Assembly (NCBI RefSeq): GCF_003334815.1
Contig: NZ_QOWO01000004.1
Direction: 5' to 3' (one strand)
DNA length: 64,000 nucleotides
DNA from: Escherichia coli
GTDB taxonomy: Bacteria; Pseudomonadota; Gammaproteobacteria; Enterobacterales; Enterobacteriaceae
The notes beneath the pieces were generated by a model. It ran no database searches and had not been told where the DNA came from. It saw only the letters and a program-made list of their open reading frames with translations. How positions within the stretch are numbered: position 1 is the first letter of the stretch; every line of letters starts with the position of its first letter. The position numbers and the translations under genes were made by a program. Shown in pieces: positions 2,846 to 36,540 of this stretch.

Positions 2846-3163
2846 ATGATCGTGCAAAAAGAGCTAGTTGCTATTTACGATTATGAGGTCCCTGTACCTG
2901 AAGATCCGTTTTCCTTCAGACTTGAGATCCATAAATGCTCTGAATTATTTACAGGTTCCGTCTATCGACTGGAGCGATTCCGGCTACATCCAACATTTCA
3001 TCAACGTGATCGAGAAGATGCTGACCCGCTAATAAATGATGCGTTGATTTATATAAGAGATGAGTGTATTGATGAGCGGAAATTACGAGGTGAATCACCT
3101 GAAACTGTAATAGCAATTTTTAATCGTGAACTACAGAATATATTCAACCAAGAAATAGAATAA
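2846..3163 (+). CDS. yehK: Small acidic protein of unknown function (105 aa)
   Basis: ORF track 2846..3163; ATG preceded by GGGGAAAG; position between yehI and yehL. Confidence 0.7.
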   Translation: MIVQKELVAIYDYEVPVPEDPFSFRLEIHKCSELFTGSVYRLERFRLHPTFHQRDREDADPLINDALIYIRDECIDERKLRGESPETVIAIFNRELQNIFNQEIE

Positions 3164-3229
3164 TATACTCTAGATAATTAAAGTCGCAGCACATGCAACT
3201 TGAAGTATGACGAGTATAGCTTTCTTAAA

Positions 3230-3249
3230 GGGGGAAACGGTATTCCCCC
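3230..3249 (-). terminator. Hairpin downstream of toxin gene 1 (GGGGGAA / TTCCCCC stem); weak U-tract
   Basis: Inverted repeat read directly; on the minus strand only TTT follows the stem. Confidence 0.4.
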
Positions 3250-3272
3250 TTAGATGCGTTTCAATTTGCCCG

Positions 3273-3362
3273 TTACTTCAACAAATCAATCAACCGTAAC
3301 AGAGCCACTAATAACTCCAGTACGGCAATGAGCACGGTTAACTTTTGTGTCAGCGTGTCCAT
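3273..3362 (-). CDS. zorO: Type I toxin, 29-aa hydrophobic peptide MDTLTQKLTVLIAVLELLVALLRLIDLLK (ZorO-like)
   Basis: Minus-strand ATG at 3362 with AAGGAG 5 nt upstream, TAA at 3275..3273; one predicted transmembrane helix with charged ends. Not in the supplied ORF track (too short). Gene name from memory of the zor-orz family. Confidence 0.75.
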   Translation of the reverse strand: MDTLTQKLTVLIAVLELLVALLRLIDLLK

Positions 3363-3543
3363 CCGCTCTCCTTATTAAGGAGCGCAACACCAGCACCTTA
3401 CCCTTACACTGCCTGTTGATACTGGTTTACGTATGTTGGTACGAAACGTTGCTCTCCGGATCAGGGCACCGCCTGCGGCACCACCCGTCCGGCAGCCAGG
3501 ACTTAAAATTGGTCCGATCCGGCACAACCTCCCAACGGGCAGG

Positions 3544-3594
3544 ATTATAAATCTCACTCACTGAATTGCAATGGAGTGTGGATATGGTTATAAT
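3544..3594. promoter_or_regulatory. Back-to-back sigma70 promoters of unit 1
   Basis: Toxin promoter on minus strand: -10 TATAAT (complement of 3544..3549), 16-nt spacer, -35 TTGCAA 3566..3571. sRNA promoter on plus strand: same palindromic TTGCAA as -35, 17-nt spacer, -10 TATAAT 3589..3594. Confidence 0.55.
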
Positions 3595-3600
3595 TTATTC

Positions 3601-3681
3601 GTTGGTACGAAATGTTGCACAATCAGCAAGTTAGCGTCACTGTAGTAAATAAAAGAACCTGCCTCACCAGCAGGTTTTTTT
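3601..3681 (+). ncRNA. orzO: Antitoxin small RNA 1 (OrzO-like), ~80 nt
   Basis: Predicted start ~7 nt after the -10; 5' segment 3601..3620 GTTGGTACGAAATGTTGCAC is complementary to the toxin leader at 3435..3452; ends at an intrinsic terminator. Extent is predicted, not measured. Confidence 0.6.
3656..3681 (+). terminator. Intrinsic terminator of sRNA 1 (AACCTGC-CTCACCA-GCAGGTT followed by a T-run)
   Basis: 7-bp stem, 7-nt loop and a T7 run read directly. Confidence 0.7.
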
Positions 3682-3837
3682 ATTTACTGCGATCTACTTT
3701 CCAGATATTTTTTGCCAATAGCCCAACTTAAATATTCACATCCCGGTCAAATGGTGCGTTGAATATAAAATCGATGAATTTATAAATAAAAATGAGTTAT
3801 ATGATGAATTAATAAAAACAGTAATCATTTTATTAAA

Positions 3838-3857
3838 GGGGGAAGCGGTTTTCCCCC
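3838..3857 (-). terminator. Hairpin downstream of toxin gene 2
   Basis: GGGGGAA...TTCCCCC inverted repeat, as in unit 1. Confidence 0.4.
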
Positions 3858-3880
3858 TTAGATGCGTTTCAATTTGCCCG

Positions 3881-3970
3881 TTACTTCAACAAATCAATCA
3901 ACCGTAACAGAGCCACTAATAGCTCCAGTACAGCAATGAGCACGGTTAACTTTTGTGTCAGCGAGTCCAT
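3881..3970 (-). CDS. zorP: Type I toxin paralog, 29 aa MDSLTQKLTVLIAVLELLVALLRLIDLLK (ZorP-like)
   Basis: Same architecture as 3273..3362; one substitution (T3S); AAGGAG Shine-Dalgarno conserved. Confidence 0.75.
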   Translation of the reverse strand: MDSLTQKLTVLIAVLELLVALLRLIDLLK

Positions 3971-4151
3971 CCGCTCTCCTTATTAAGGAGCGCAACACCA
4001 GCACCTTACCCTTACACTGCCTGTCGATACTGGTTTACGTATGTTGGACCACGATGTTGCACTCCGGATCAGGGCACCACCTGCAGCACCCCCCGTCCGG
4101 TAGCCAGGACTTGAAATAGGTTCGATCCGGCGCAACGTCCCAACAGTCAGG

Positions 4152-4202
4152 ATTATAAATCTCATTATCTTAATTGCAACGGGGTCCAGCCGTGGTTATA
4201 AT
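4152..4202. promoter_or_regulatory. Back-to-back sigma70 promoters of unit 2
   Basis: Toxin -10 (complement of 4152..4157), shared -35 TTGCAA 4174..4179, sRNA -10 TATAAT 4197..4202; spacers 16 and 17 nt. Confidence 0.55.
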
Positions 4203-4208
4203 TCGTTC

Positions 4209-4291
4209 GTTGGAACACGATGTTGCACAGGCTGTGGTGTTAGGCCTGAAAATAGTAAATAAAAGAACCTGCCTCACCAGCAGGTTTTTTT
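4209..4291 (+). ncRNA. orzP: Antitoxin small RNA 2 (OrzP-like)
   Basis: 5' segment 4209..4228 GTTGGAACACGATGTTGCAC is complementary to the leader of toxin 2 at 4043..4062; intrinsic terminator at the 3' end. Confidence 0.6.
4266..4291 (+). terminator. Intrinsic terminator of sRNA 2
   Basis: Same AACCTGC...GCAGGTT stem and T-run as unit 1. Confidence 0.7.
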
Positions 4292-4402
4292 ATTTACTGC
4301 GATCTGCTTTCCAGATATTTTTTGCTCAAACAACTAATGCGCCAAACATTTATTGCGCGTAAAATATCGTTTATTTCATTAATACATTTCAGGGATGAAT
4401 AT

Positions 4403-24716: not shown

Positions 24717-24889
24717 GATGAGCATTCAGATAGTGGTTCACGCGCACGGGTTGCGCACCGCCGGAGTAAGGATTTACTGAGGCTAGCGACGCCATCATAA
24801 CGAGCAAAAAGTGCGATCGTCAAAGGAGAATCGTGAGGAAATGCTGCATTGCTGACATTTACGCCAGCAATGCAACGTCAAAGAACTTT

Positions 24890-36354: not shown

Positions 36355-36540
36355 GACGCATCCGGCATTTGGTTCCTGTCGCCGGATGCGGCTTGAACGC
36401 CTTATCCGGCCTACAAAACCATACAAATCAGTATGTTGAGCTTATTGTAGGCCGGATAAAACGCGCCAGCGTTGCATCCGGCATTTGGCTCCTGTTGCCG
36501 GATGCGGCGTGAACGCCTTATCCGGCCTACAAAACCACAC
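36355..36540. repeat. BIME: cluster of REP elements in alternating orientation
   Basis: Three GCCGGATGCGGC...TTATCCGGCCTACAAA-type units between preA and mglC. Confidence 0.85.

Follow-up and report, generated by a model that had tools for sequence, protein, structure and literature searches.

The closest described relatives of the locus analysed here are the zor-orz type I toxin-antitoxin systems of E. coli. A toxin gene pair, z3289/z3290, and two sRNAs were placed between yehK and yehL by Fozo et al. (2010, PMC2887945), whose primer extension located start sites giving long 5′ UTRs of ~180 nt; this length was later refined to 174 nt for zorO (Wen et al., 2017, PMC5397157). The two antitoxins are defined by the V1 triplet at +9..+11, which is GAA in OrzO and ACG in OrzP (Wen et al., 2014, PMC3919570), and the two toxins differ at residue 3, threonine in ZorO and serine in ZorP (T3S; PMC11264685).

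The control of zorO has been studied experimentally, and either a leader peptide or a ribosome standby site was initially proposed (PMC3919570). The ribosome-binding site (RBS) was subsequently found to lie in a stem in both the full-length mRNA and a naturally processed form, Δ28 (Wen et al., 2017, PMC5397157). Processing of 28 nt exposes the region +73..+102, termed EAP, and greatly raises translation; truncation of EAP is detrimental to translation except where a mutation has opened the RBS, and deletions indicated that an element at +35..+50 is required for optimal translation (PMC5397157). The full-length mRNA is nevertheless still translated in vitro, and the protection conferred by OrzO was mapped to the 3′ end of EAP (PMC5397157). 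A conserved Shine-Dalgarno-like (SD-like) motif within EAP, GGAG(U/A)G, was found to matter for toxicity (Shore et al., 2024, PMC11264685).

Identity and distribution of the locus

The window, that is the whole stretch of 64,000 nt of E. coli DNA that was analysed (GCF_003334815.1, contig NZ_QOWO01000004.1), contains two units arranged as a direct repeat of 93% identity. The ORF list places the zorO coding sequence at 3273..3362 on the minus strand, where it encodes a 29-aa hydrophobic type I toxin, MDTLTQKLTVLIAVLELLVALLRLIDLLK (ORF 3362..3273), and this peptide is identical in O157:H7 and in 15 other units. The zorP coding sequence, the T3S variant, lies 608 nt downstream of the first copy at 3881..3970 (minus strand). 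O157:H7 strain FRIK2069 has both toxin ORFs in identical form; the ORFs are divergent from the sRNA genes, with which they do not overlap. A predicted 3′ hairpin of the zorO mRNA, AAGGGGGAA...UUCCCCCUU, was placed at 3228..3251 (minus strand) from folds and repeat I2; an mRNA ending there would be ~310 nt, and the published zorO transcripts are of ~310 and ~280 nt (PMC3919570). Overexpression of the EDL933 toxin alleles, whose ORF and target sequences are the same as here, is toxic and is rescued by the cognate sRNA (PMC3919570).

The antitoxin genes are on the plus strand. OrzO occupies 3601..3681, with GAA as the V1 triplet at +9..+11 and a terminator hairpin at its end, and OrzP occupies 4209..4291, with ACG as V1. 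Both match the Rfam family RF02083 (OrzO-P), scoring 88.8 and 99.9 bits, respectively, against a gathering score of 60, and both are ~80 nt in length and end in strong terminator hairpins; the fold of OrzO has a z-score of −3.1. Weak Rfam matches with E > 0.01 (Thr/Trp leaders, STnc370 and miRNA models) were dismissed, as they reflect only the terminator hairpin. On the V1 triplets unit 1 was assigned as zorO-orzO and unit 2 as zorP-orzP, and the toxin residues, T3 in unit 1 and S3 in unit 2, agree with the published ZorO and ZorP. The yehK-yehL spacer was the home of the locus in every annotated E. coli genome opened (nine RefSeq records). The zorO leader differs from the O157:H7 genome at a single base, 3417 (T in the window, C in the O157:H7 strain compared); the pairing regions, including the G·U pair described below, are unchanged, and a few substitutions beyond the leader separate the window unit from that strain. 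From the Rfam calls, the position between yehK and yehL and the one leader-base difference, the locus is, on sequence grounds, the known zorO-orzO/zorP-orzP type I toxin-antitoxin system.

The strain that carries the window is not O157:H7. The best matches to the locus were in other E. coli lineages, at 99.7-100% identity, and a match with at least 80% query coverage was obtained in ~3,390 of the 5,426 complete genomes of E. coli. In an exact-pattern scan of one genome per species, only three more Escherichia species beyond E. coli carried the leader. A distant BLAST search against plasmids returned only zor copies (93-100% identity), mostly from chromosome-sized or very large replicons, and missed the dinQ-linked matches of 71-74% that Shore et al. 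(PMC11264685) reported at E ≤ 1e-5. A zor leader plus ORF of 93% identity was seen at ~120129..120390 in the 180,962-bp E. coli plasmid records NZ_CP103756.1 and NZ_CP049079.2. In the yehK-yehL spacer of K-12 MG1655 (record L002, 1484..1790) the toxin and target are absent; the spacer keeps the zorP promoter, ~30 nt of the leader and an orphan orzP identical to that of unit 2, which has already been published as OrzPmg (PMC11264685). Strains GN06156 (L006) and SH19PTE6 (L008) have a third specificity type, with target GTTGAGTCGCCATGTTGC and sRNA GTTGAGATGCCATGTTGC, and a three-unit array is present among them; zorQ/orzQ as a third type and three-unit arrays have likewise been published (PMC11264685).

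Neither gene is annotated in any of the inspected RefSeq records with zor or orz (L001 and L003-L009), and a search of NCBIfam with the 29-aa toxin matched no model. The locus is therefore invisible in standard annotation, and a toxin-antitoxin pair is left unannotated in RefSeq. Elsewhere in the window, two further Rfam matches exceeded their gathering scores, both on the minus strand: a Peptidase-S11 RNA motif at 24721..24801 (72.8 bits) and naRNA4/CssrE at 36450..36527 (88.3 bits). The window contains no tRNA genes.

Promoters and antitoxin targets

A promoter scan of 3100..4400 returned four promoter-like sites and no others. The toxin promoters, on the minus strand, are sigma-70-like with the layout TTGCAA-16-TATAAT (3571..3544 and 4179..4152), and the sRNA promoters, on the plus strand, are their mirror image, TTGCAA-17-TATAAT (3566..3594 and 4174..4202). 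The −10 hexamers, TATAAT, of the first unit lie at 3544..3549 (zorO, minus strand) and 3589..3594 (orzO, plus strand); a palindromic −35, TTGCAA, at 3566..3571 is common to the zorO and orzO promoters, and another at 4174..4179 is common to those of zorP and orzP. The palindromic −35 is kept in 18 of the 19 aligned units, and is TTGCAG in L008_1588. As each pair of toxin and antitoxin promoters shares one palindromic −35, a single RNA polymerase probably engages only one of them at once, and this arrangement may make initiation of toxin and antitoxin mutually exclusive.

The predicted zorO start is G 3536, given a −10 that ends at 3544, and this start yields a leader of 174 nt (3363..3536, minus strand; +1 = 3536), which is the published length. 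A first-pass annotation of the window had proposed a leader of ~175 nt beginning at 3537; the long leader stands, and the promoter spacing and the published length correct both figures by one nucleotide. The equivalent zorP leader, identified from the 93% direct repeat and from folds, has the same architecture as that of zorO and spans 3971..4144 (minus strand), rather than ending at 4145 as first proposed. A start far nearer to the AUG, which would have left the target out of the mRNA, was not borne out, as primer extension had found the long UTRs (Fozo et al., 2010, PMC2887945).

Alignment, duplex energy and the published protection all place the OrzO target in the zorO leader at +85..+102 (3435..3452, minus strand). 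On the plus strand this segment, GTTGGTACGAAACGTTGC, is the same as the sRNA 5′ end at 3601..3618, GTTGGTACGAAATGTTGC, at 17 of 18 positions; ~0.11 chance matches with three or fewer mismatches would be expected per window. This same-strand match means that the mRNA, transcribed from the minus strand, can form 17 Watson-Crick pairs and one G·U pair (mRNA G 3447, sRNA U 3613) with the sRNA, transcribed from the plus strand. The predicted duplex has an energy of −31.3 kcal/mol, compared with −13.2 ± 2.1 kcal/mol for shuffled leaders, the best shuffle reaching −20.4 kcal/mol. Counted from the A of the AUG, the target is 73-90 nt upstream, and a gap of 61 nt lies between it and the SD sequence, AAGGAG at 3368..3373. 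The position of the complementary segment and its distance of ~60 nt from the SD, both claimed in the first-pass annotation, were thus upheld.

The OrzP target is a 20 nt segment of the zorP leader (4043..4062, minus strand) that pairs with 4209..4228 of the sRNA with one G·A mismatch (4049/4215) and a duplex energy of −34.0 kcal/mol. In both units, as in members of this family, the first 18 nt of the Orz sRNA are complementary to the zor 5′ UTR ~73-91 nt upstream of the AUG. Cognate duplexes were predicted at −31 to −34 kcal/mol and non-cognate duplexes at −16 to −24 kcal/mol, the cognate pairings being 7-18 kcal/mol more stable. At five of the 20 sRNA/target pairs both partners differ between the O, P and Q types while pairing is preserved, and 95% of the cells in the sRNA/target alignment are paired, a figure that falls to 25-43% in slid registers. 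The P and Q types, unlike the O type, have an internal mismatch at sRNA position 7.

Leader structure and the control of zorO

The consensus folds were calculated with RNAalifold from 13 distinct leader variants, from E. coli, E. whittamii and two other Escherichia species. A hairpin at +150..+174 (3363..3387, minus strand) is predicted to sequester the SD: AAGGAG, 5 nt before the zorO AUG, pairs with CUCCUU at 3377..3382, and every pair of this hairpin is kept in the 13 variants. The probability that the SD is unpaired was 0.07-0.12 in the two window mRNAs; over the 13 UTR-only variants its mean rose from 0.09 to 0.27 (range 0.08-0.45) in the Δ28 form. The predicted hairpin thus sequesters the RBS in a stable local structure in both forms of the mRNA, as a standby-type mechanism would have it. 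Immediately upstream, the consensus fold and the alignment give a stem-loop at +111..+148 (3389..3426, minus strand) with a 20-nt purine-rich loop at 3398..3417 (+120..+139). The loop contains two UAAGG repeats and is almost invariant over the 13 variants; base 3417, the sole leader difference from O157:H7, sits at its edge.

In the published numbering the EAP region, the putative ribosome standby site, corresponds to 3435..3464 (minus strand), and within it an SD-like GGAGAG at +80..+85 (3452..3457, minus strand) lies directly 5′ of the target. The hairpin element at +35..+50, which appears in the consensus fold as well as in the published deletions, corresponds to 3487..3502 (minus strand). 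The first 28 nt, lost on processing, are 3509..3536 (minus strand), so that the 5′ end of the Δ28 form is +29, or window position 3508. In the full-length consensus fold +1..+22 pairs with +74..+102, essentially the published EAP span, and so closes the region; in the Δ28 consensus fold +82..+105 is unpaired and +73..+81 is still paired. Removal of the 28 nt raised the probability that the target is unpaired from 0.33 to 0.49, a modest shift of the ensemble. The cis duplex between the first 23 nt and EAP was predicted at −27.4 kcal/mol, compared with −14.0 ± 2.7 kcal/mol for shuffled 5′ ends, one in 2,000 of which matched it. The folding energy of the whole leader is unexceptional (z = −1.2 and −1.3), so that stability alone is not evidence. 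The cis helices showed no compensatory changes in the 13-variant alignment, the variants being too similar to one another. Among the unpaired regions of the Δ28 consensus fold no conserved long-range or pseudoknot helix of at least five pairs was found, and a tisB-like pseudoknot was rejected on this basis.

These data, taken together with the published experiments, make it highly probable that the zorO SD is held in a hairpin and that an upstream standby region is opened by processing and blocked by OrzO. The SD would be held permanently by its local hairpin, and efficient initiation would consequently depend on an upstream single-stranded landing region, +73..+102, carrying the SD-like GGAGAG. 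In the primary transcript the first ~22 nt would pair with this region and close it, and loss of the first 28 nt would open it and activate translation; we infer that the 30S subunit binds at the region so exposed. OrzO, transcribed from the back-to-back promoter, would then pair with +85..+102 through its first 18 nt and deny the ribosome its landing region, and the OrzO/zorO duplex would be cut in an RNase III-dependent manner. Of this scheme, the start site, the processing, the RBS stem, the opening of +73..+102, the OrzO footprint, the inhibition of translation and the RNase III requirement come from experiments in the literature; the present analysis adds, from the DNA letters, the identity of the locus, its coordinates, the complementarity and covariation, and the predicted folds. 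As the full-length mRNA is translated in vitro, the standby region appears to help translation without being essential to it. The first-pass annotation had considered direct occlusion of the SD unlikely and had favoured leader structure, processing or a standby site, a view that agrees with the published work (PMC5397157).

A different account holds that OrzO acts essentially by destruction of the mRNA, the 18-bp duplex being an RNase III substrate and the position of the target irrelevant to translation. RNase III is indeed required for OrzO action at high induction (PMC3919570): in a Δrnc strain at 0.2% or 0.002% arabinose OrzO does not rescue and full-length zorO mRNA accumulates, and the major cleavage sites fall inside the paired region (PMC3919570). 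Decay may therefore contribute as much as the translational block when the toxin is highly induced. However, at low induction OrzO does rescue the Δrnc strain, in which it inhibits translation, it strongly lowers ZorO synthesis in a purified in vitro translation assay, and it has little effect on an open-RBS mutant (all PMC5397157). These three results contradict decay as the sole mechanism, which is improbable: decay clearly takes part, but together with translational control and not instead of it. We consider it less probable still that OrzO refolds the leader at a distance, for example by making the SD hairpin more stable or by preventing another pairing that would release the SD, with no competition for a standby site. 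The leader is highly structured, its conserved purine-rich loop at 3398..3417, with the two UAAGG repeats, is a conceivable rival of the SD for CUCCUU, and ribosome contact at EAP is itself described as putative (PMC11264685). Structure probing, however, found the RBS to be the same in the closed and open forms (PMC5397157), the search of the Δ28 consensus fold for a long-range helix was negative as described above, and a GAG to CTC change in the SD-like motif beside the target lowers the toxicity of the Δ28 form (PMC11264685), which fits a landing site.

Coupling of the hok/mok kind, in which translation of an upstream ORF opens the zorO SD and OrzO interferes with it, is barely credible for this leader. 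The comparison of ORFs identified one candidate, 3286..3396 (minus strand), of 36 codons, which starts with GUG at +141 (3396) and runs into zorO in another reading frame; it is open in every one of the 19 units, and an SD-like AAGGG precedes its start by 4 nt. The start codon is AUG in strain PA45B. The OrzO target (+85..+102), however, lies 39 nt upstream of this start with no overlap, the GUG is buried in the +140..+148 stem, and the authors of the zorO work themselves thought such coupling unlikely. The peptide occurs in 11 variants among the 19 units, compared with three for Zor, which argues that substitutions respect the zor frame and not that of the upstream ORF; a peptide that varies so freely is probably not a selected coding frame. 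As the sole SD-preceded upstream ORF is off target and its peptide is not conserved, leader-peptide coupling was rejected. A standby region closed by the 5′ end of the mRNA, opened by processing and blocked by OrzO remains the preferred reading.

The 5′ end of the zorO mRNA (GUUGGGAGGUUGU..., 3515..3536) and that of OrzO (GUUGGUACGAAAUGUUGC, 3601..3618) have the blocks GUUGG and GUUG in common. The zor mRNAs start GUUGG...GUUG(U/C) and the Orz sRNAs GUUGG...GUUGC, and in both RNAs the anchor blocks pair with the parts that flank the target core, which are invariant. With common blocks pairing the same flanks, the closing strand resembles a copy of the antitoxin, weaker and built into the mRNA, and the variable core, V1, may remain available to determine O, P or Q specificity. 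That such a copy competes in cis with the antitoxin in trans for the site, alongside mutually exclusive initiation, is a tentative and rather doubtful proposal; if true, it would provide two coupled layers of control, one at transcript initiation and one at a single site on the mRNA. In the main texts of the zor-orz papers, which were searched, neither the −35 hexamer as common to both promoters nor the anchor blocks common to the mRNA 5′ strand and the sRNA are discussed. The shared −35 and the shared blocks are modest observations, and in part they follow logically from the fact that the two RNAs pair with one site.

Comparison with described systems

For essentially the same sequence the literature already describes the locus with its long leader and distant sRNA target, together with the standby-type explanation, and the real regulatory architecture was recoverable from raw sequence alone. 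Every feature tested matches zorO-orzO/zorP-orzP of E. coli O157:H7 EDL933 (Fozo et al., 2010; Wen et al., 2014, 2017; Shore et al., 2024): the yehK-yehL site, the tandem duplication, the 29-aa toxins, the 174-nt leader with its AAGGAG hairpin, the position of the 18-nt target, the GAA and ACG V1 triplets, the TTGCAA/TATAAT promoters and the OrzO-P sRNAs.

By architecture the locus may be likened to tisB-istR-1 of E. coli, where too the sRNA gene is divergent, the leader is long and structured, the RBS is sequestered, processing at the 5′ end activates the mRNA, and the sRNA pairs with a single-stranded stretch a long way upstream of the SD. The two differ in that the full-length mRNA of tisB is inert in translation and that of zorO is still translated, in that standby binding on tisB requires S1 and a 5′ pseudoknot whereas the zorO standby is putative, and in that tisB is LexA-controlled. 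The E. coli systems shoB-ohsC and dinQ-agrB resemble it in their divergent layout, in pairing within the 5′ UTR distal to the RBS and in their 5′-processed active mRNAs; they differ in their toxins and sRNAs, and activation of dinQ is described as a structural switch. In hok/sok of plasmid R1 the antisense RNA likewise has its site of action far upstream of the toxin start, and processing activates the mRNA, but hok undergoes 3′ processing and is coupled to mok, the start of which Sok overlaps, whereas zorO is processed at its 5′ end and OrzO does not target a conserved leader peptide.
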